A stretch of 28,535 bases of DNA. Source: Alphaproteobacteria bacterium (GTDB taxonomy: Bacteria; Myxococcota_A; UBA796; UBA2385). The first letter of the stretch is position 1, and each line of letters opens with the position of its first letter. Below the pieces are notes generated by a model. That model made no database searches. It was not told the origin of the DNA and saw only the letters and a program-made list of their open reading frames with translations. Shown here in pieces: positions 3,030-28,494 of the stretch. The stretch covers positions 1 to 28,535 of the forward strand of contig JBEIVK010000001.1 in assembly GCA_040373935.1 (NCBI GenBank), read 5' to 3'. The position numbers were made by a program, and so were the translations under genes.

Positions 3030-3599
3030 ATGGACGGCTACTACGACCATCACCCGAGCACCCAACTCGACCGGCCGATCGTGTTGTGGGGCTTCATGGG
3101 CAGCCTCTGTGACCGTGTGGCGTCCTCGCTCGGCGCGCTCACCGGACTGCCCTCGGTGGATCTGGACCGCCGGGTGGAGCACCGCGCCGGCCGCAGCGTG
3201 TCGCAGCTCGTCCTGGAGGCAGGGAGCTGCGAGTATCGGCACGTCGAGCAGGACGTGCTCACCCAAGCCCTCGCAGACCGCCCCTATGGCGTGATCGCGC
3301 TGGGCGAGGGTGCCTTGCTGCACCCCGGCAACCTCGAGGCCATCCGGGCCTCGGCCTGCACCGTGTACCTCCAGTGGCCCTTGGCAGACCTCGCGCGAAA
3401 CATCCGCCGGGAGCTGGACCAGCGCCCGGGGCGGTGGCCGTGGTTCATGCAGCGCGGCAGCGTCGTGACGGCGCTGGGCATCCAGCCGATGTTGCAGGAG
3501 CGGGAAGACGCCTACCGGCTGGCCGAGCACACCATCGCGTGCGCCGGGCGCACGCCGCCCCAGATCGCCATTGGACTCAAGGGCATTTTGGGGATTTGA
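3030..3599 (+). CDS. Shikimate-kinase-like protein with degenerate Walker A
   Basis: IVLWGFMG, DLDRRVEHRAGRSV, YRHVEQDVL, VIALGEG and TVYL follow AroK in order, but GKS/T is replaced by LCD. Start set at ATG 3030 from the RBS. Confidence 0.75.
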   Translation: MDGYYDHHPSTQLDRPIVLWGFMGSLCDRVASSLGALTGLPSVDLDRRVEHRAGRSVSQLVLEAGSCEYRHVEQDVLTQALADRPYGVIALGEGALLHPGNLEAIRASACTVYLQWPLADLARNIRRELDQRPGRWPWFMQRGSVVTALGIQPMLQEREDAYRLAEHTIACAGRTPPQIAIGLKGILGI

Positions 3600-3610
3600 C
3601 GCGCGGTGCG

Positions 3611-4024
3611 TCAGGCGGGGCTGGGAGGCGCCGCTGCCGGGTCGAACCAGAACGGCTCCCAGGTGTGGCCGTCCGGGTCTTGGAAGGCCCAGGAGAACAT
3701 GAAGCCGAGGTCTTGGGGGTCGCGCAGCGGGGCCCCTCCGGCGCGAAACGCGGTTTCGCACATGGCCTTCGCGGCATCCACCGAGTCGCAGGACAACGCG
3801 AGGAGGGCGGCCGTGGACGACCGGGCGTCGACGATGGGTTTCGGGGTGAACTGCGAAAAGTGCCCGTGCGTGAGCAGCATGACGTACAGCGGCCCGTCCA
3901 CGTGGAAGCAGGCGGCCGCCTCCGAGGTGAACGCCGGGACCAAGGTCCAGCCCAGCGCGAGGTAGAACGCTTGGCTCCGTGGCAGGTCGCGAACCGGTAG
4001 ATTGATGAAGAACGACGTGGCCAA
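3611..4024 (-). CDS. VOC/glyoxalase family protein
   Basis: FINLPVRDLPRSQAFYLALG, YVMLLT, DLGFMFSWAFQDPDGHTWE. TTG start. Confidence 0.9.
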   Translation of the reverse strand: MATSFFINLPVRDLPRSQAFYLALGWTLVPAFTSEAAACFHVDGPLYVMLLTHGHFSQFTPKPIVDARSSTAALLALSCDSVDAAKAMCETAFRAGGAPLRDPQDLGFMFSWAFQDPDGHTWEPFWFDPAAAPPSPA

Positions 4025-4029
4025 GCCCT

Positions 4030-4050
4030 CTCCGGCCCGCAGGGCCGGAG
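4030..4050. repeat. Perfect 9-bp hairpin CTCCGGCCC-GCA-GGGCCGGAG
   Basis: Read directly in the intergenic gap between the peroxidase and VOC genes. Confidence 0.75.
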
Positions 4051-4072
4051 GGCGGCGCGGACGAGGCGAGCC

Positions 4073-4657
4073 CTACTTCGCGGCGAGCGCAGCGTCGATG
4101 GCGGCGCGGAGCTTCGGGTCGTCCGGCTTGGTGGTGGGAGCAAAGCGCGCGACCACCTTGCCGTCCCGCCCCACGAGGAACTTCTCGAAGTTCCAGGAGA
4201 TGTCGCCGCCGCCGCCGGCCGCCGAGCCCACGAGCGAGGCATACAGCGGGCTGCGCTTCGCCCCGTTGACGTCCTGCTTCGCGAGCAGCGGGAAGCTGAC
4301 GCCGTAGTTCATCTGGCAGAAGCTGGCGATCTCTGCGGGTGCGCCCGGCTCCTGCCCCCCGAACTGGTTGCACGGCACGCCGACGATGACCAGCCCATCG
4401 GACTTCTTCTCGTCGTACAGCGCCTCCAGGCCTTTGTACTGCGGGGTGAGACCGCACATGCTCGCGACGTTGACGAACAGCACGACCTTGCCCTGCAGCG
4501 CCGCGGCCGCCATGGGAGAGCCGTCGAGCTGCTGCAGCGGAAGGGAAACGGGGCTGGACACGGCGGACTCCACGGGGGCGCCGGCGTCGGCCGTGCGCGG
4601 CAGGAAGGGGACGGAGGAGGCCAGCGCGAGCGCGAGGGCCGGGAGCAGACGAGCCAT
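4073..4657 (-). CDS. Glutathione peroxidase family protein (Cys type) with signal peptide
   Basis: NVASMCGLTPQY, PCNQFGGQEPG and WNFEKFLV motifs. Start moved to ATG 4657 (MARLLPALALALASS...ADA). Confidence 0.92.
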   Translation of the reverse strand: MARLLPALALALASSVPFLPRTADAGAPVESAVSSPVSLPLQQLDGSPMAAAALQGKVVLFVNVASMCGLTPQYKGLEALYDEKKSDGLVIVGVPCNQFGGQEPGAPAEIASFCQMNYGVSFPLLAKQDVNGAKRSPLYASLVGSAAGGGGDISWNFEKFLVGRDGKVVARFAPTTKPDDPKLRAAIDAALAAK

Positions 4658-4775
4658 GAGGGGCTCCGTTCGGGGAAGGGGACGGAGCACACATAGGGCC
4701 ATCCGGGGCTGGGTCAAGGGCGTGTGCCGCGCGCGGGGGGCCGACCCGTCGCCACCGCATTAGGACGCGGCCGCC

Positions 4776-6056
4776 ATGACTGTCCGCATCGCCGACCACC
4801 TCCCCGCCGACCCGCGCGCCGCCATGCGCGCCGCGGTCACTCCCACCATCGCCGCCATGCAGGGGAGCTTGATCCTCGGCATCGCCCAACAGGTGCGCCA
4901 GCTCAAGGCTGCAGGGGCGGCGGTCGCAGACTTCACCGTCGGTGACTTTGCGCCCGCGCAGTTCCCGATCCCGCCCGGGCTGTCGGCCGAGATCGGGCGC
5001 GCGCTTGCCCGCGGCGAGACCAACTACCCGCCGGCCGAGGGCATGCCGGCGCTCCGGCAGGCGGTGGCAGACCTCTACCGGGAGCGCTTGGGCCTGGACT
5101 ACGGGCCCGACGGCGTTTGCGTGTGCTCCGGTGCCCGGCCGCCCATCTTCGCCACGTGGCAGATGTTCGTCCGGCCGGGGGACAAGACGGTGTCCTTCCT
5201 GCCGGGGTGGAATACGGGGTACTACGCGCAGCTGTTCGGTGCAGACCACCACTTCGTGCCGACGCGCGCCGAGGATGGCTTTTTCCCCACCGTCGAGGCC
5301 GCTCGCGCGGCGATGCGCGGGGCCCGCCTCGTCATCCTCAACAGCCCGCTCAACCCGACGGGCACCGCCATTCAGCCGGAGGTGCTGCGCGGCATCGCGC
5401 AGGCCCTGGTGGAAGAGAACCGCGGCCGCGCCGAGCCGTGCATCCTGCTGTTCGACCAAGTGTATTGGCTGCTCACCCAGCCGGGGGTGTCCCATCACAA
5501 CCCGGTCGCGCTGGTGCCGGAGTGCGCGCCCTACGTCGTGCAGGTCGATGCCATCTCCAAGTGGCTGGCCGGCACGGGGCTCCGCGTGGGCTGGGCCGTG
5601 CTGCCGCCGCACCTGCAGGAGCGGATGAAGGCGCTGGTCGGGCACATCGGCGCGTGGGCCCCGCGCGCCGAGCAGGTTGCCACGGCCGCATTCCTCGCAG
5701 ACCGCGCGTCCCTCGACGCGGGCGTCGCCGCACTGAACGCTGCCGTGGGCGCGCGCCTGGGCCGCCTCTACACGGGCATCCAGGCCATGAAGGCCCGGGG
5801 CCTCCCGGTGGATGCCATCGCCCCGCAGGGCGCGATCTACCTGTCGTTTTGGGTGGGCCTCGTCGGCCGCGAGGCCACCCCCACCAACGAGTCGGTGCGG
5901 CGTCTCCTGTTGGAGCAGGCGGGCGTCGCGGTGGTGCCCTTCCAGGCCTTCGACATGCCGGGCGACACGGGGTGGTTCCGCCTCAGCGTCGGTGCGGTCG
6001 GAATGGCGGACATCGACGACGCGCTCGCCCGCCTCGAAGCCCTCCTGTCGCGCTGA
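4776..6056 (+). CDS. Class I/II PLP-dependent aminotransferase (aspartate aminotransferase-like)
   Basis: TNYPPAEG, NSPLNPTG, FDQVY and DAISKWLAGTGLRVGW (PLP lysine) motifs. Confidence 0.92.
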   Translation: MTVRIADHLPADPRAAMRAAVTPTIAAMQGSLILGIAQQVRQLKAAGAAVADFTVGDFAPAQFPIPPGLSAEIGRALARGETNYPPAEGMPALRQAVADLYRERLGLDYGPDGVCVCSGARPPIFATWQMFVRPGDKTVSFLPGWNTGYYAQLFGADHHFVPTRAEDGFFPTVEAARAAMRGARLVILNSPLNPTGTAIQPEVLRGIAQALVEENRGRAEPCILLFDQVYWLLTQPGVSHHNPVALVPECAPYVVQVDAISKWLAGTGLRVGWAVLPPHLQERMKALVGHIGAWAPRAEQVATAAFLADRASLDAGVAALNAAVGARLGRLYTGIQAMKARGLPVDAIAPQGAIYLSFWVGLVGREATPTNESVRRLLLEQAGVAVVPFQAFDMPGDTGWFRLSVGAVGMADIDDALARLEALLSR

Positions 6057-22268: not shown

Positions 22269-22868
22269 CTATCGGCCGCCCCCGTGGTTCTTGGGGTCGT
22301 CCTCTTCTTCGGCGGTGCCCGACCCGTCGATGATGCGGCGGGCGAGGTCGAACGAGAACCCGGCGCGGCCGAGGGCGGCGAGGTCTTTGTCGCGGGAGGC
22401 GGCGCGGGACGCGCTGTCTCGCCGGAAGGGGCCGAGGCGGCGCCGGCGTGCGTAGGCGCGGGCGGCGTCGGCCTCATCGTGGGGGGCGCGGGCGGCCAGG
22501 GCCTCGCCCAAGGCCTCGGCCTGGAAGCCGCGGCGGTGGAGCTTTTCGCGGATGCCGCGTGCCGAGGCGCCGCGGCGGCCGAGCGCGGCGCCGATGGCGG
22601 TGGCGAGGGAGGGGTCGTCCAGGCGCCCGGACTCTCGAAGATCGGCCACGAGGGCGTCGACCCACGCGGCGGCGGTGGTGGCGTCGCCGCGGCCCCAGTC
22701 GACGGCGCGCTGGATGCGACGGGCGAGCACGGCACGCAGACGGGCTTCAGAGGCGGGAAAACGCTCGAGGTAGCGGAGCGCCTCGTCGCGCAGGGTGGTG
22801 GGGCTGAGCGGCGGGGGCGGGCGGCGCCGGCGGGGGCGTCCGCCGTCGTCGGGGTCGAAGGTGGGCAT
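22269..22868 (-). CDS. recX: Regulatory protein RecX
   Basis: ALRYLERFPASEARLRAVLARR, LDD, SARGIREKLHRRG, RRRRLGPFR and LGRAGFSFDLARRII. Confidence 0.88.
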   Translation of the reverse strand: MPTFDPDDGGRPRRRRPPPPLSPTTLRDEALRYLERFPASEARLRAVLARRIQRAVDWGRGDATTAAAWVDALVADLRESGRLDDPSLATAIGAALGRRGASARGIREKLHRRGFQAEALGEALAARAPHDEADAARAYARRRRLGPFRRDSASRAASRDKDLAALGRAGFSFDLARRIIDGSGTAEEEDDPKNHGGGR

Positions 22869-22877
22869 GGGGCGCGT

Positions 22878-23744
22878 TTATCCCGGGCTGCGACGAGGTG
22901 GGCGAGGGAAAAGCCGCGGGACATCCCGAAGATAGGCTTGGTAAGATGGGTCTTGGCCCCAGCGGGCGGCGGCCCGCGCCTCGAGCAGCGGGACCCCACT
23001 CCCGAAGCGGAGGAGGCCGAACACGAAGAGCGGTGAGGCGAGGGCGAGCCAGGCGACCCCGTGGAGGCGAGGGGTTGCAGCGAGGAAGAGGCCGGACCAG
23101 AGCAGGATCTCGCCGAAGTAGTTGGGGTGGCGGCACCAGGCCCACAGTCCGACGCCGATGAAGCGGCCGTGATGGGCCGGCACGGCGCGGAAGGCCGTTT
23201 TTTGGGCGTCGGCCGTGACCTCGACGGCGAAGCCGACGACCCACAGAGAGAAGCCGAGGGCCTCGACGGGGCCGGGCGCGGGCGCGGCGGGGCTGAGGAC
23301 TGCGGCCGTGACCGCGAGGTTGGTGAGGTTGACCCAGAGGCTTTGCAGCGCCCAGGCGACGGCGAAGCGGGCGGGATTTTGCTTGATGGCGTCGAAGCGC
23401 CCGTCCCCCTCGCGGTGCGCGCGGCGGGCGAGAAAAACCCCGAGGCGGAGTGCCCAGAGCGCGGGCAGGCCGAGAAAGAGCCACCGGAGCGGGCCGCCAC
23501 TGCCGGTGGTGGCGAGCAGCGCGCAGGAGAGCAGCGTCGAGAGGGCGCCGACGAGGTCGTAGAAGCGCTCGGTGCGGGCGCGGGCGGCGGGGACGAACGC
23601 GAGCGCGTTGAGGGCGACGACCGCGATGGCCGCCCAGGCGGCGGCGGGCAGCGGCCCCCAGCGGGGACCGGCAGCGCCGACGAGGCCCACCAGCAGCGGG
23701 CCGCCGAGGGCGCAAGCGAGGACGACGACGATGGCCTGGGTCAT
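22878..23744 (-). CDS. DUF1295 (steroid 5-alpha-reductase-like) membrane protein
   Basis: WALRLG, DGRFD, EVTADAQK, GLWAWCRHPNYFGE, SGVPLLE and YQAY motifs; multiple TM helices. Confidence 0.92.
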   Translation of the reverse strand: MTQAIVVVLACALGGPLLVGLVGAAGPRWGPLPAAAWAAIAVVALNALAFVPAARARTERFYDLVGALSTLLSCALLATTGSGGPLRWLFLGLPALWALRLGVFLARRAHREGDGRFDAIKQNPARFAVAWALQSLWVNLTNLAVTAAVLSPAAPAPGPVEALGFSLWVVGFAVEVTADAQKTAFRAVPAHHGRFIGVGLWAWCRHPNYFGEILLWSGLFLAATPRLHGVAWLALASPLFVFGLLRFGSGVPLLEARAAARWGQDPSYQAYLRDVPRLFPRPPRRSPG

Positions 23745-23810
23745 GGGCGCTCCACCAGCCGGTTACCACGGTGGGCGTGGCGTGCCTGGTGGGGCGCCCA
23801 GGAGGTCCCG

Positions 23811-25016
23811 GTGAGCCAGAACGCGCCTGCGCCGCAGTCCCTCGTGTTCTCCCCGGCCGATGTGGCGGCGCGGGTCGACGCCGCACAGACGGCCCTCGCA
23901 CGCGGGCTCGGCGAGAGCGTCGTTCTGGCCTTCGTGGGTGCGGCGTCGGCAGGCAAGGACGCCGGGATCAAGGCGCTCTTTGGCGTGGACTTCGGCGAGG
24001 TCGACCCGGTGCCGGGCAGCACGGATCGCTTGCGCGCGGTGGCATTGGACACGGCCGGGCAAGTTCTGGTGGTGAACGCGCCCGGCTTCGGGGACCTGCG
24101 CGCGGAGGTGGCGGCGACGAGCCAAGCCCTGCTTCACAAGCTGGACCTCGCGGTCTACGTCGTCAACGCCGACGGCGGCGCCACGGCCGATGACAAGGCG
24201 CACCTCGCCGCCCTTCGCGCCCTGCAGCGGCCGGTGCTCGTGGTTCTGAACAAGATCGACCTCATCCGGCCGCACCAGAAGGAGGCGTTCGTCTCCGCCA
24301 CCTTCGCGCAGCTGGGGGTGGAGCCCGGGGACGGCGTGGTGGCGGCCTTCGATCCGTTGCCCGCCCTGTCGGCGGGCCCCATCGGGCTCGACGGGGTGAC
24401 GGAGTGGATCGTTCGGACGCTGACGGCCCAGGGCAAGGCGATGCTGTTCGCGCGCCAGCTGCGAGACAAGGCGCTGGCCTGTGAGGCGCTCATCAAGGCG
24501 GCGGCGCGTCGATCGGCCCTCGCGGGGGCCATCCCGGTGCCCGGCGCGGACATGGCGGCCGTGACGGCCGTGCAGGTGCAGCTCATCACCGAGATCGCGA
24601 CGATCTACGGTCGGCGCATGGATCGGGACCTCGCGTTGTTCATCGTGGCGGAGGCGCTCGCCGGGTCGGGCAAGGGCTTCGTGCGTTGGGCGACGAACGC
24701 CCTAAAGACGGCGGGGTGGATCCCGGGCGGCCAGCTGGGAGAGGTGGCGGCGAGTGCGTTGGGCGCGGCGGTGTCGAGCGCGGCCACCTACGGGGTCGGG
24801 CGGGCGGCGGTCTCCTACATGGAGAAAGAGTCGCTGGGATTGCCGGTGAGCGGGGCGGACATCCGCGCGGTGTTCGAGACCTTTGCGCGGCAAGCGCGGG
24901 GCGGCGGGGTGCCGGGCATCGGCGCGGCGCCGGCGGCGGCCCTCGCGGCCGGGGCGGCAGATGACGTGCTGGACGCGGAGATCGAGACGCCCTCTCCGGG
25001 TGGAGCGGGCCGTTGA
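23811..25016 (+). CDS. Atypical TRAFAC-class GTPase with C-terminal DUF697/YcjF-like domain
   Basis: AGGAGG RBS at 23800-23805, GTG 23811; G1 GAASAGKD, G2 PGST, G3 NAPG, G4 NKID; C-terminal AGAIPVPGADMAAVTAVQVQLITEIATIYG. Confidence 0.85.
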   Translation: MSQNAPAPQSLVFSPADVAARVDAAQTALARGLGESVVLAFVGAASAGKDAGIKALFGVDFGEVDPVPGSTDRLRAVALDTAGQVLVVNAPGFGDLRAEVAATSQALLHKLDLAVYVVNADGGATADDKAHLAALRALQRPVLVVLNKIDLIRPHQKEAFVSATFAQLGVEPGDGVVAAFDPLPALSAGPIGLDGVTEWIVRTLTAQGKAMLFARQLRDKALACEALIKAAARRSALAGAIPVPGADMAAVTAVQVQLITEIATIYGRRMDRDLALFIVAEALAGSGKGFVRWATNALKTAGWIPGGQLGEVAASALGAAVSSAATYGVGRAAVSYMEKESLGLPVSGADIRAVFETFARQARGGGVPGIGAAPAAALAAGAADDVLDAEIETPSPGGAGR

Positions 25017-26167
25017 CCGGGCCGCTGCCGCCGGACTTGCCCGAGGTGCTGCGCCGGGCGCGGCGGGACGAGCTCGCCCCCTTGTGCACGCTGCTGCGGG
25101 TGCCGTCGGAGGGCCGGAGCCGGGACGCGGTCGCGCGGTCGCTGCAGCTCGCGCTGCGCATGGCGGGGACGCGGCCCTTGCTCAACGTCGCGCGCGGGCG
25201 GCGAGAGCCCGACGCGTGGCATGAGGTGGTGGACCGCATCGCCGAGTCGGTGGGCGCGGCGCCGGGCGGGGAGCCGGCCTTCACGGAGCGGCGCGTTCTC
25301 GAGGCTTGGGCGAAGCGGGGGCGCCCGCGGCCGGTGCCGGCCGAGGACATCGCGGAGGTGCTCGCGGCCGGGTGGGCGCCAGCGCCCGGCGAGGCGCTGC
25401 AGCCCGTGCGGCGCGGCGCCGTCCAGCGCACCGTGGCGCAGGCAGTCCTCATGGGGATGAGCCGGTTCTTGCTGCTCTTTGTCGGGCCGCTGCTGGTGCT
25501 GGGCCTGCTGTATCTCCTGAGCCGGCCGCGCGAGGCGGTGCTCCTCCGGGCGGTGCTGGAGGTGGCCCGCTTGCGCGTGCGGGTGGGTCACCGCTTCACG
25601 CTCGCGCTGGTGGGGCCGCCGTCCGTGGGCAAGGACGCCGCGATGAAGGCGATTTTTGGGTTCGATACCGGGAACGTCTCCCCGATCGCCGGGTCGACCC
25701 GGCGCGCGGCCGCCTGGGAGGTGCCCGGGGAGCGCGGCCTGGAGGTGCTGAACACGCCGGGGGTGGGCGACACGGATGACGCGCTGACGGACGAGACGCG
25801 TGGCCTGCTCGACGCCGCGGACCTGTTCCTGTTCCTGGTGAACGCGCAGGGCGGCGTGCGTCAGCGAGAGAAGGACGAGTTTGCGCGGGTGCGCGCACGC
25901 CGGCGGCCGACCTTGGTGGTGGTGAACAAGCTGGACACCCTCCGACCGGGAGACCGGGAGCGGTTCCTGGCGGATTGCGCGGCCAAATTGGGCGTGGGCC
26001 GGGAGGGCGTCGTCGGCGCGGCGTTCGACCCGCTGCCCGCGCTGGCCGACGCGCCCTTCGGCGTGGGGGAGGTGCACGCGTGGCTGCGCGCGTGTCTGTC
26101 GGCGGCGGGGCGGGACCCGGGGGCCCTGGATGGACTGATCGGGGGCGGGCCGACGCTCGAGGTCTAG
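25013..26167 (+). CDS. YaaW-like membrane domain fused to atypical TRAFAC-class GTPase
   Basis: TTG start overlaps the previous TGA; hydrophobic FLLLFVGPLLVLGLLYLL; G1 GPPSVGKD, G2 GST, G3 NTPG, G4 NKLD. The GTPase call is firm; the YaaW call is tentative. Confidence 0.82.
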   Translation: MTGPLPPDLPEVLRRARRDELAPLCTLLRVPSEGRSRDAVARSLQLALRMAGTRPLLNVARGRREPDAWHEVVDRIAESVGAAPGGEPAFTERRVLEAWAKRGRPRPVPAEDIAEVLAAGWAPAPGEALQPVRRGAVQRTVAQAVLMGMSRFLLLFVGPLLVLGLLYLLSRPREAVLLRAVLEVARLRVRVGHRFTLALVGPPSVGKDAAMKAIFGFDTGNVSPIAGSTRRAAAWEVPGERGLEVLNTPGVGDTDDALTDETRGLLDAADLFLFLVNAQGGVRQREKDEFARVRARRRPTLVVVNKLDTLRPGDRERFLADCAAKLGVGREGVVGAAFDPLPALADAPFGVGEVHAWLRACLSAAGRDPGALDGLIGGGPTLEV

Positions 26168-26202
26168 GTCCGGTGTGCGATGATGGGGCGCTGGGGGGAA
26201 CG

Positions 26203-28494
26203 ATGCGGCGTGCGGTTTTCGGGTGTTGGATTGGGGTGGTGGCGGGCTGTGCGGGCGGCGCGGGCGGCGGAGGGCCGTCTGGCAAGCCCGCCCCGGACAC
26301 GGGGGCACCCCCGCCCGAGGACACCGGGCCCGCTCCGTGCGGGGACGCTGGGGGCGCCTTGCCGTCCGGCCTGGAGACCCTCACGACGGGCCGCGAAAAC
26401 CCCCAGGCGACCGTGCGGGACATCGACTTTCGCACCGGCGGCGAGGACCTCAACGACACCCTCCTCCATGAGGCGGTGCGCTTCGATCTGCCGCGTCCGG
26501 CGCGGATTTACGGGTACTCGGTGTGGTACGGGCACCTACCGGCCGGCGGCCCGGCGGACTTGCTCCCGGTGGCGCTGTGGCCCGACTTTGGGCACAACGG
26601 CTTCGACTTCCAGCCTTGGGCGCCGCTCGCGGTGGGGACCCGGTGCCTCGGGGAGCTGTCGACCGATGGCTGGTCGGACTACGTGCTGGCCGAGCCCTTC
26701 GAGGTGGCGCAGCCGGGGCTCGTCTACGTCGGGCACACCCGCGAAGGCCTCGACGGCGCGGCGTGGGCCTTCGACACGGCCACGGTGCGCTCGGATGGCG
26801 CGTGCGCGGAGTGGGCGGATTGCAGCTCGGCCCTGAACCTCCCGCTCGCCGACGATGCGAGCTATTACAATGGGACCAGTTTCCCCCTGCAGTACAGCTT
26901 TCTCGTGCGTCTGCATGTGGAGTGGACGGCGGAGGCAGACCCGGCGCAGCGGGTGTTCGTCGACACCGCGGTGATCGATGTGGACGCCGACGGAGACGGC
27001 GCCTTGGACCCGCTCGTCCTGGGAGGCCGCGCCGCGTGGGCCGATTACGACGGCGACGGGTGGGAGGACGTGCTGACGGGCGGGACCTTGCTGCGCAACC
27101 TCGGGGCGGGGGTGTTCACGGACGTGACGGCCGAGAGCGGGGTCGCGGCGGCGGCCGCGCGGTCCGGCGGCGTGTGGGGAGACATGGACAACGACGGGGA
27201 TCCAGACCTGCTCGTGTTCGCCGAGGCGCTGAACGCCACAGAGACGCTCTTCCGCAATGAGGGAGATGGCACCTTCTCCGACGTGAGCGAGGCGGCCGGG
27301 CTCGTGGATGTGAACGGGACGGATGACTGCGGGGACCCGGTGGCGAACGTGCATCGGCCGACCGCCGCGGCGGCGTGGTGGGACATCGACGGCGACGGCT
27401 GGCTTGATCTCACCATGGCCAACTTCATCTGCTGGTCGAGTGGGAGCACTTACGCGGACACGGTCTTCCGGAACCGGGGAGACGGGAGCTTCGAAGATTG
27501 GTCTGAGGCGCGTGGGTTCTCCGGGCTGGAGCGTGCGGGGCGCGCCTTGGGGCCCGCAGACGCTGACGGCGATGGAGACGTAGATCTCCTGGTGGGCAAC
27601 TATCGTCTTCAGGCCAACTTTTTCTACGACAACGGTGGCGATGGTACCGTCATCGAAGCGGCGCGGGAGGCTGGCCTGCGCGGGACGGAGAGCCTGCAGG
27701 GCACCACCCGGTACTATGGGCACACCATCGGGATCTCCTGGGGCGACCTCGACAACGACGGCGACCTGGACGTCGTGACGGGCAACCTGGCCCACCCGCG
27801 ATTCTTCGATTTCTCCGACAAGACCCAGATCCTGCTGAACGACGGCGCGGGGTCCTTCACGGATCGGCAGGGAGATTGGTCCGACCACGCGGGGGACGCC
27901 GGCCTCCGGTACCAAGAGACCCACTCGGTCCCGGCCCTCGCCGACTTCGATCACGATGGCGTGCTGGACCTCGCCTTGAGCGCCGTGTATCCGGGGCGGC
28001 CTTCGGAGCTGTACTGGGGGCGCGGCGATGGCACCTTCGCGTGGGAGGCGATGGACGCGGGCCTCGAGGAGACGAATGGGTGGGGGCTCTCGGTGGCGGA
28101 CCACGACAACGATGGGGATGTCGATCTCGCGGCCAGCCGGGCGCTTTGGGACAACCGCCGCGCGGAGGGCGCGTGGGCGCAGGTGCGCGTGGTCGGGGCC
28201 GCGGGCTGCAATCGGATGGGGCTCGGGGCCACGGTGCGCGTCGAAGCCGGTGGGGTGCGGCACACCCGGGTCGTCAGCGGCGGCAACGGGCAGGGCGGGC
28301 AGGACAGCGCCGTGATTCACGTTGGACTCGGGACGGCGGAGGTGGTGGACCGCATCGCCGTGCGCTGCCCCGGGCAGGCGGAGGTCGTCGTCGAAGGGCC
28401 CCTCGCCGTGGGTGAGCGCTGGTGGGTGGGCTCCGATGGGCGCGTGGAGGCGGGGTGGTCGCCGCCCGCTTGGGCGCGGGGGGCTGCGTGGTGA
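26203..28494 (+). CDS. CRTAC1-like lipoprotein with FG-GAP/VCBS repeats and C-terminal ASPIC/UnbV domain
   Basis: Lipobox VAG-C; repeated DxDGDGxxDL motifs (DYDGDGWED, DMDNDGDPDL, DIDGDGWLDL, DLDNDGDLDV, DFDHDGVLDL); C-terminal NRMGLGATVRV...SGGNGQGGQDSAVIHVGLG. Confidence 0.9.
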   Translation: MRRAVFGCWIGVVAGCAGGAGGGGPSGKPAPDTGAPPPEDTGPAPCGDAGGALPSGLETLTTGRENPQATVRDIDFRTGGEDLNDTLLHEAVRFDLPRPARIYGYSVWYGHLPAGGPADLLPVALWPDFGHNGFDFQPWAPLAVGTRCLGELSTDGWSDYVLAEPFEVAQPGLVYVGHTREGLDGAAWAFDTATVRSDGACAEWADCSSALNLPLADDASYYNGTSFPLQYSFLVRLHVEWTAEADPAQRVFVDTAVIDVDADGDGALDPLVLGGRAAWADYDGDGWEDVLTGGTLLRNLGAGVFTDVTAESGVAAAAARSGGVWGDMDNDGDPDLLVFAEALNATETLFRNEGDGTFSDVSEAAGLVDVNGTDDCGDPVANVHRPTAAAAWWDIDGDGWLDLTMANFICWSSGSTYADTVFRNRGDGSFEDWSEARGFSGLERAGRALGPADADGDGDVDLLVGNYRLQANFFYDNGGDGTVIEAAREAGLRGTESLQGTTRYYGHTIGISWGDLDNDGDLDVVTGNLAHPRFFDFSDKTQILLNDGAGSFTDRQGDWSDHAGDAGLRYQETHSVPALADFDHDGVLDLALSAVYPGRPSELYWGRGDGTFAWEAMDAGLEETNGWGLSVADHDNDGDVDLAASRALWDNRRAEGAWAQVRVVGAAGCNRMGLGATVRVEAGGVRHTRVVSGGNGQGGQDSAVIHVGLGTAEVVDRIAVRCPGQAEVVVEGPLAVGERWWVGSDGRVEAGWSPPAWARGAAW

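Follow-up and report, generated by a model that had tools for sequence, protein, structure and literature searches.

The window, that is, the whole stretch of 28,535 nucleotides analysed here (contig JBEIVK010000001.1 of assembly GCA_040373935.1), has a G+C content of ~74% and comes from a 4.8-Mb metagenome-assembled genome (MAG) that is 78% complete. Two overlapping genes on its forward strand, gene 1 (23811-25016; P0001, 401 aa) and gene 2 (25013-26167; P0002, 384 aa), encode GTPases in which two residues of the Mg2+ site differ in concert from the canonical ones, the G1 motif (Walker A) ending in GKD and the G3 motif (Walker B) reading NxPG. The carboxylate of the site has moved from G3 (Asp to Asn) to G1 (Ser/Thr to Asp), and this coupled change marks a distinct subfamily, as had been suggested in a first-pass annotation made from the DNA letters, which called the subfamily undescribed; we found no published description of it, and no paper in the open-access literature that combines GKD with P-loop, GTPase or Walker A. 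The coupled motif swap is what is new, whereas an Era/Der-type GTPase fused to a JukA/YaaW or DUF697 domain is of a known kind. The relatives of gene 1 are referred to below as family A, those of gene 2 as family B and a third family with the same swap as family C, and the G1/G3 state of a protein is given as, for example, D/N.

Gene 1 has a GTG start and a TGA stop, and a ribosome-binding site, AGGAGG, was read directly at positions 23800-23805, 5 nt 5' of the start. The protein consists of an N-terminal helix, the G domain (approximately residues 35-210), a helical DUF697 domain and a low-complexity tail. In G1 (GAASAGKD, 23937-23960) Asp50 replaces the Ser/Thr, and Ser46 the Asn found in Era and Der; G2, or switch I (PVPGST, 24006-24023), contains the invariant Thr71; in G3 (NAPGFGD, 24075-24095) Asn89 replaces the Asp, the Gly is followed by a hydrophobic residue (Phe), and Asp95 is invariant. 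The G4 motif NKID lies at 24249-24260, and a clade signature in the G5 region, AFDPLPAL, at 24345-24368. The DUF697 domain (PF05128; residues 224-341, 24480-24833) scored 45.5 bits against a cut-off of 27.7 and is all-helical in the AlphaFold2 model of the protein (predicted local distance difference test, pLDDT, 85.4), with a weak EcsC-like signal over residues 229-272.

Gene 2 begins at a TTG within the sequence TTGA (25013-25016), which also contains the end of gene 1 and is preceded 8-9 nt upstream by GGTGGAG. Its product is arranged differently, with a JukA/YaaW-like domain (UPF0174, Cbp3-like; residues 10-119, 25040-25369, located by hhalign of the family alignment), a linker that is disordered in the model (residues 123-147, pLDDT <50), a transmembrane (TM)-like hydrophobic helix and, last, the G domain. 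The hydrophobic segment (residues 152-170, FLLLFVGPLLVLGLLYLLS, 25466-25522) has a Kyte-Doolittle mean of 2.5 and coincides with a modelled helix at residues 150-170. The motifs of the G domain are GPPSVGKD (G1, 25613-25636, with Asp208), PIAGST (G2/switch I, 25682-25699, with Thr229), NTPGVGD (G3, 25751-25771, with Asn247), NKLD (G4, 25925-25936) and again AFDPLPAL (26021-26044). The motif positions, the gene coordinates, the TTGA overlap and the common AFDPLPAL of the first-pass annotation were thus all recovered in the sequence. Promoter and terminator scans gave no signal above chance.

The two G domains are paralogues, as had been proposed, sharing 43% identity over 179 residues (E = 5e-39) and aligning as profiles over 185 columns (hhalign E = 4.5e-56). 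The remaining parts of the two proteins gave no homology signal (BLASTP E = 0.32; hhalign probability <1%), and a homology between DUF697 and YaaW was rejected on the same hhalign result. Both domains exceeded the gathering cut-off of MMR_HSR1 (PF01926; 33.7 bits for gene 1 and 39.3 bits for gene 2, cut-off 21.9), and neither protein reached the cut-off of any NCBIfam model. The closest solved structures by G-domain profile were Der/EngA (E ~2e-20) and Era (~1e-16), and a Foldseek search with the G domain of gene 2 returned Era, EngB and Der only, with a root-mean-square deviation (rmsd) of 3-4 angstroms over the G domain for Era and EngB. In the profile alignment to the Der/EngA structures the Asp of GKD corresponds to the Ser of GKS, and the Asn of NxPG to the Asp of DTxG, which places the altered residues at the position after the Walker A Lys (K+1) and at the Walker B position.

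The pair therefore shares with Era, Der (EngA), EngB and MnmE (TRAFAC class, MMR_HSR1) the order of G1 to G4 and the hydrophobic residue after the G3 Gly. The canonical G1 consensus GxxxxGK[S/T] keeps its Gly and Lys in both proteins, with Asp as its last residue; the G2 Thr and the G3 Gly are invariant, the Asp of DxxG is Asn in both, and G4 conforms to [NT]KxD. In Era, Der and MnmE-type GTPases a P-loop Asn three residues before the Lys (K-3, GxxNxGKS) serves activation by K+; the pair has an invariant Ser there (GxxSxGKD). The pair also differs from these GTPases in the AFDPLP of its G5 region and in its partner domains, which are DUF697 or JukA-like, with no KH or other RNA-binding domain.

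An analogy with paired bacterial dynamin-like proteins, drawn in the first-pass annotation, fared poorly. Such a membrane-remodelling system (LeoA/LeoBC, DynA, BDLP) resembles the pair in its adjacent paralogous GTPase genes, its membrane association and a weak similarity of the G domains, which matched LeoA/LeoBC; moreover, Foldseek aligned the whole gene 1 model with IRG, EHD, IniA, BDLP and mitofusin (TM-scores 0.25-0.40). These alignments, however, had rmsd values >9 angstroms and covered little beyond a G domain plus helices, the TM-scores to BDLP, IniA and mitofusin being 0.25-0.33. Both proteins fell below the Dynamin_N cut-off (15.1 and 20.8 bits, cut-off 27), and their G domain is of only ~170 residues, lacking the dynamin insertions, stalk and paddle, so that membership in the dynamin-like group was rejected. 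With Der, Era and EngB nearest in both sequence and structure, a dynamin-like system appears very improbable.

For either gene, word-indexed searches retrieved relatives in the hundreds, almost exclusively from MAGs of Myxococcota or "Deltaproteobacteria". Since these lists and the locus scan had been seeded with words or patterns containing GKD, a word-free HMMER search with the G-domain profile was added, run against 1.84 billion representative proteins; it yielded 68 clusters at E <= 1e-30, beyond which the scores graded into ordinary Der at ~1e-22. Within each family the G1/G3 state was read by hidden Markov model alignment in representatives of 90%-identity clusters. It was D/N in 120/121 relatives of gene 1 (the other being D/K), 121/121 relatives of gene 2 and 118/118 members of family C, that is, in 359/360 representatives, which shows that the unusual residues are due neither to chance nor to decay; the first-pass annotation had argued against sequencing error or decay. 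In the joint alignment of families A and B the invariant columns were GxxSxGKD, PxxGxT, NxPGxGD, N..GG, NKxD and AxDPxPxL.

Together with their nearest relatives, these families form a clade within the Era/Der-like GTPases that carries the AFDPLP mark and whose G1 and G3 covary, GKD occurring with N and GK[S/T] with D. The GKD+N groups are the gene-1-like proteins, the gene-2-like proteins and the third family (GDGSxGKD...N[YF]PGFND), and the canonical examples include P0258 (GTASSGKT/DAPGFGD/AAFDPLPQ) and a GKS/DTPGLQD group. Among 83 scorable domains (75 clade members and eight Der outgroup domains) 46 were D/N, 33 [S/T]/D, two D/T, one E/T and one G/D. A carboxylate was present at exactly one of the two positions in all 83 domains, never at both or at neither, and no GKD+D or GK[S/T]+N combination was found among them; the exceptions to the two main states were two GKD proteins with Thr at G3 (TAPGVGD), one degenerate GKE with Thr and one GKG with Asp. 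The covariation expected from the first-pass annotation was thus found, family-wide D/N standing against GK[S/T]/DxPG in the nearest relatives, in line with a compensatory shift of the carboxylate. The two GKD+Thr proteins (P0281 and P0293, loci L100 and L104) are GTPase-DUF697 proteins reading LTAPGVGD, on contigs of only ~1 kb; two metagenome scans for the genomic context of these proteins and of P0298-type JukA-GTPases gave only two contigs of ~1 kb. A supposed GKD+D intermediate in locus L103 was a misread pattern match, its true G3 being VVNAPG.

The DUF697 domain, present in 79/79 family A members, relates gene 1 to YcjF-type proteins and to the GTPase-DUF697 fusions (NCBIfam slr1306). 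Canonical proteins of this architecture exist (P0258 and P0269) and are the nearest outgroups of gene 1, and tandem paralogues occur among them; they differ in reading GK[S/T]/DxPG, and gene 1 scored only 32 bits with the slr1306_fam model, whose cut-off is 490. The open-access literature yielded no paper on the function of DUF697. In a Myxococcota genome outside the order of the window (locus L099, positions 3325-5507; G124:C248) two adjacent, overlapping canonical GTPase-DUF697 genes were observed, with the motifs GSVNSGKS/DTPGLED and GKVNAGKS/DTPGLED, indicating that paralogous GTPase-DUF697 pairs exist without the GKD/N swap. Canonical JukA-GTPase fusions (GKS/D) exist as well (P0324 and P0350). 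Taken together, the canonical fusions and tandem pairs indicate that G-domain pairing and fusion to JukA or DUF697 are older, and that GKD/N was derived within them.

Phylogenetic trees are consistent with this order of events. In the full-length tree of the DUF697-bearing proteins the canonical GKS/D lineages are laddered at the base on well-supported (starred) branches (98/97 and 98/92), and the crown is a four-way split among family A (D/N), P0265 (D/N), the D/T pair and P0258/P0259 (T/D). Because the canonical lineages branch off first, the canonical state is ancestral and GKD/N derived. The best G-domain tree, built after removal of both trait columns (G1 and G3), implied four changes of G1 state and five of G3, and D/N formed a single clade in 0/200 bootstrap trees; its backbone is a polytomy, with only one independent contrast on starred branches. 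The coupled switches number at least one and at most about four. That no intermediates are seen is compatible with compensation, for which the tree provides no statistical support.

The pair is a conserved, translationally coupled two-gene operon confined to a single order of uncultured Myxococcota. A survey of 80 species-representative loci, 77 of them with enough sequence, placed the family B gene directly downstream of the family A gene on the same strand in 71/77 loci. The stop of A and the in-frame start of B overlapped in an NTGA sequence in 45/67 pairs, the start lying within a few tens of bases in the others. Family A was detected in 32 of the 401 Myxococcota genomes sampled, including that of the window, all within its order, and 32/32 carriers also had family B, in keeping with the coupled pair of the first-pass annotation. 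In the three genomes of one genus (G217:C19/C85, G242:C6/C4 and G347:C16/C210; loci L112-L114) A and B were located on different contigs, both full-length; their retention together without linkage argues for a shared function. Excluding the window's genome, family A was distributed unevenly among the bacterial families of the order (f1 5/8, f2 3/12, f3 12/20, f6 11/12, f4 0/4 and f5 0/3) and consistently within genera, and no plasmid copies of gene 1 were found. The operon looks non-essential, vertically inherited and repeatedly lost.

The N-terminal domain of gene 2 had no Pfam match in any of 86 family members, and its affinity was revealed at the profile level. The family alignment matched YaaW of E. 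coli K-12 (hhalign probability 95.1%, E = 3.1e-8, residues 10-119 against 11-141), which consists of DUF3944 and the Cbp3-type PF03981 and is annotated as a putative chaperone homologous to Cbp3. In addition, 56/86 gene 2 family members matched the JukA models of PADLOC (best E = 2e-12). In the window itself, the N-terminus of gene 2 matched neither DUF3944 nor PF03981 in Pfam, nor PADLOC JukA at E <= 0.1, so that its assignment is made on profile-level evidence. For gene 2 the first-pass annotation had thus recognised a membrane-type module and missed the JukA/YaaW (Cbp3-like) domain. According to the available part of a preprint on the Juk system (10.1101/2022.09.17.508391), JukA (formerly YaaW) is a homologue of Cbp3 and the sensor of this anti-jumbo-phage system, operons combine jukA with genes for EcsC-like proteins, and in some cases JukA occurs as a fusion with a "Ras-like GTPase"; no GTPase motif analysis was found in that part.

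These parallels raise the alternative that the Myxococcota pair is itself a Juk-type anti-phage system, in which the JukA-like domain would detect, at the membrane, factors that the phage ejects, the EcsC-like DUF697 protein would act as effector and the two G domains would gate their association. Besides the alignment of the first ~110 residues of gene 2 to YaaW, the JukA matches of its relatives, and the fusions and operon partners reported in the preprint, weak EcsC matches were detected in 26/79 family A members, on the DUF697 stretch. The pair nevertheless differs from Juk in that both partners carry a paralogous G domain and JukB is lacking: neither gene 1 nor its 79 relatives matched JukB or any other effector model, the only matches being those of the G domain to LeoA/LeoBC. 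It also lies outside defence islands. Its neighbours are ordinary chromosomal genes (RecX, DUF1295, amidohydrolase, FG-GAP/ASPIC, ThrRS, ExbBD and UbiA), and no defence genes were seen around the Myxococcota pair, with synteny reaching close relatives only. The consistent presence within genera of a single order resembles vertical descent with losses, no plasmid copy was found, the window's gene 2 itself misses the JukA models, and the chaperone annotation of YaaW points elsewhere. On this evidence, we consider a Juk-type function of the Myxococcota pair possible but rather doubtful.

A further argument for such a function comes from family C, whose members (~420 aa, GKD/N) share the architecture of gene 2 and have an N-terminal domain that matches JukA (E = 4e-45). 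All four tested proteins of family C and of the P0298/P0318 type (P0278, P0472, P0298 and P0318) matched PADLOC JukA. Family C was found in Pseudomonas, Halopseudomonas, Vibrio parahaemolyticus, Shewanella, Serratia, Pectobacterium/Dickeya and Novosphingobium, and on a plasmid of Azospirillum. Its gene is part of a conserved three-gene set, composed of a divergent gene for a sigma54-activator-type AAA+ protein, a gene for a conserved protein of 120-133 aa with a glycine-zipper-like hydrophobic stretch, and the JukA-GTPase gene, as seen in Pseudomonas, Vibrio parahaemolyticus and Shewanella (L088:3666-7239, L091:3669-7254 and L092:3718-7257). In Pseudomonas, Shewanella and Vibrio this set adjoins Mrr, BrxR, type I restriction-modification, GmrSD, integrase or integrative and conjugative element genes, that is, defence islands, and constitutes a candidate defence module for which no description was found. 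The similarity of its small protein to DUF697 was not significant (E = 0.09). The same Pseudomonas island (L086-L088:9691-11378) also contains genes for IIGP-like (331 aa) and AIG1-like (228 aa) small GTPases and an ankyrin-repeat gene; these lie a few kb past family C, from which they are separated by a gene for a 207-aa protein and a ribonucleotide-reductase-like gene.

The role of the operon could therefore be either a Juk-like envelope surveillance, favoured by the homology and by the context of family C, or a Cbp3-like assembly or chaperone function, which fits the Myxococcota pair better in view of its ordinary chromosomal context and vertical inheritance. For the pair itself we favour, with a probability of roughly 0.55, a heterodimeric GTPase switch that is anchored in the membrane, has its Mg-site carboxylate relocated and is encoded by a conserved operon. 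Both proteins would still bind GTP-Mg2+, since the G1 Lys, the G2 Thr, the G3 Gly and NKxD are all invariant. Asp50 of gene 1 and Asp208 of gene 2 would be direct ligands of Mg2+, as the hydroxyl of Ser/Thr is in canonical enzymes, and Asn89 and Asn247 would take over the hydrogen bonding that the Asp normally provides from the second shell, keeping the local charge; the GKD+Thr variant fits, as the G3 position would then need only a neutral hydrogen-bonding residue. A GTP-dependent heterodimer through the two G domains would form at the membrane, with gene 2 supplying the anchor, and would link the DUF697 module with the JukA-like one, be the latter for recognition or a chaperone. The sequences themselves show the paralogy, the motif states with their covariation, the domain composition, the operon and the co-occurrence of its genes; the ligation of the metal, the binding and hydrolysis of nucleotide, the heterodimer and the biological role are inferred. 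More tentatively, and with the odds somewhat against it, GKD/NxPG could be a working alternative catalytic configuration of the P-loop, with the Walker A carboxylate as a first-shell Mg2+ ligand and Walker B carrying only a neutral hydrogen-bonding residue, in which case JukA- and DUF697-linked, GTP-gated membrane heterodimers would be widespread.

Several observations weigh against the heterodimeric switch. The highest Kyte-Doolittle mean in gene 1 is 1.43, too low for a classical TM helix, so that the membrane-type module ascribed to each protein in the first-pass annotation found support in gene 2 and not in gene 1. Likewise, the tie it proposed between the motif pair and gene pairs holds for families A and B and breaks in family C, which in Proteobacteria is a single JukA-GTPase gene with no adjoining A-type partner; a heterodimer would hence not be intrinsic to the GKD/N G domain. 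With respect to the swap, the hypothesis that GKD arose only once was not rejected in an approximately unbiased (AU) test (p = 0.116), and the covariation may reflect one inherited event followed by purifying selection instead of repeated compensation, so that the raw counts overstate how strongly it speaks for coupling. Given this test, the single contrast on starred branches and the polytomy of the crown, several independent coupled switches are unproven; of the compensatory swap as first proposed, the coupled change of G1 and G3 was retained and the strength of the covariation argument was reduced.

The remaining objection is chemical. The Walker A Ser/Thr and the Walker B Asp have been described as a strictly conserved, hydrogen-bonded catalytic pair, the only exceptions discussed being some nucleoside monophosphate kinases (Kozlova et al. 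2022, PMC9599734). The swap affects the same two positions, and their functional pairing fits a coupled change; unlike in that universal pair, both residues are replaced here, in three families on which purifying selection evidently acts. In many P-loop NTPases, mutation of the Walker B Asp to Asn spares binding and abolishes activated hydrolysis, and replacement of the Walker A Ser/Thr inactivates these enzymes (PMC9599734), which implies that the pair may bind GTP without hydrolysing it. The proteins would then be hydrolysis-dead pseudo-GTPases, locked by Asp/Asn as constitutively GTP-bound or nucleotide-sensing scaffolds and not cycling as switches, and the hydrophobic residue after the G3 Gly, leaving no catalytic Gln, and the Ser in place of the K-3 Asn are in accordance with this. 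However, the gamma-phosphate sensors (G2 Thr and G3 Gly) are invariant in hundreds of sequences of the three families, as befits a working GTP/GDP cycle, and the strict one-carboxylate pattern suggests selection on metal-site chemistry and not a tolerated loss, so that we regard pseudo-GTPases as unlikely.

In either case, a large family under purifying selection with exchanged Walker A/B chemistry represents a natural double-mutant cycle. If GTP is hydrolysed, a carboxylate in the first shell has to be built into models of Mg2+ coordination and proton relay; if it is not, bacteria possess in these proteins a new and large class of pseudo-GTPases. GKD/N proteins are missed or mis-scored by motif filters that insist on GxxxxGK[ST] or DxxG. 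Through JukA/YaaW the variant is connected with a family of sensors in anti-phage immunity about which little is understood, and the presence of family C in cultured Pseudomonas, Shewanella, Vibrio, Serratia and Dickeya/Pectobacterium makes its biochemistry testable without the uncultured Myxococcota host.

Upstream of the operon the window contains, on the reverse strand, an open reading frame (ORF) of 199 aa with no Pfam matches (22269-22868), at the position where the contig of a close relative has a RecX gene, and a gene for a DUF1295 membrane protein (22878-23744), which by comparison with that relative appears to be inserted between the 199-aa ORF and the GTPase operon. Several public MAG records with the Myxococcota-type operon (L046, L047, L052, L071, L074 and others) are evidently mislabelled, bearing names such as Klebsiella pneumoniae, Bifidobacterium breve, Enterobacterales and Cognaticolwellia. 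Downstream of gene 2, a large FG-GAP/ASPIC (UnbV) repeat protein is encoded on the forward strand (25975-28494), with the same neighbour in a relative (L090); its longest ORF reaches back over the end of gene 2, and the true start probably lies further in, at MRRAV..., which is signal-peptide-like.

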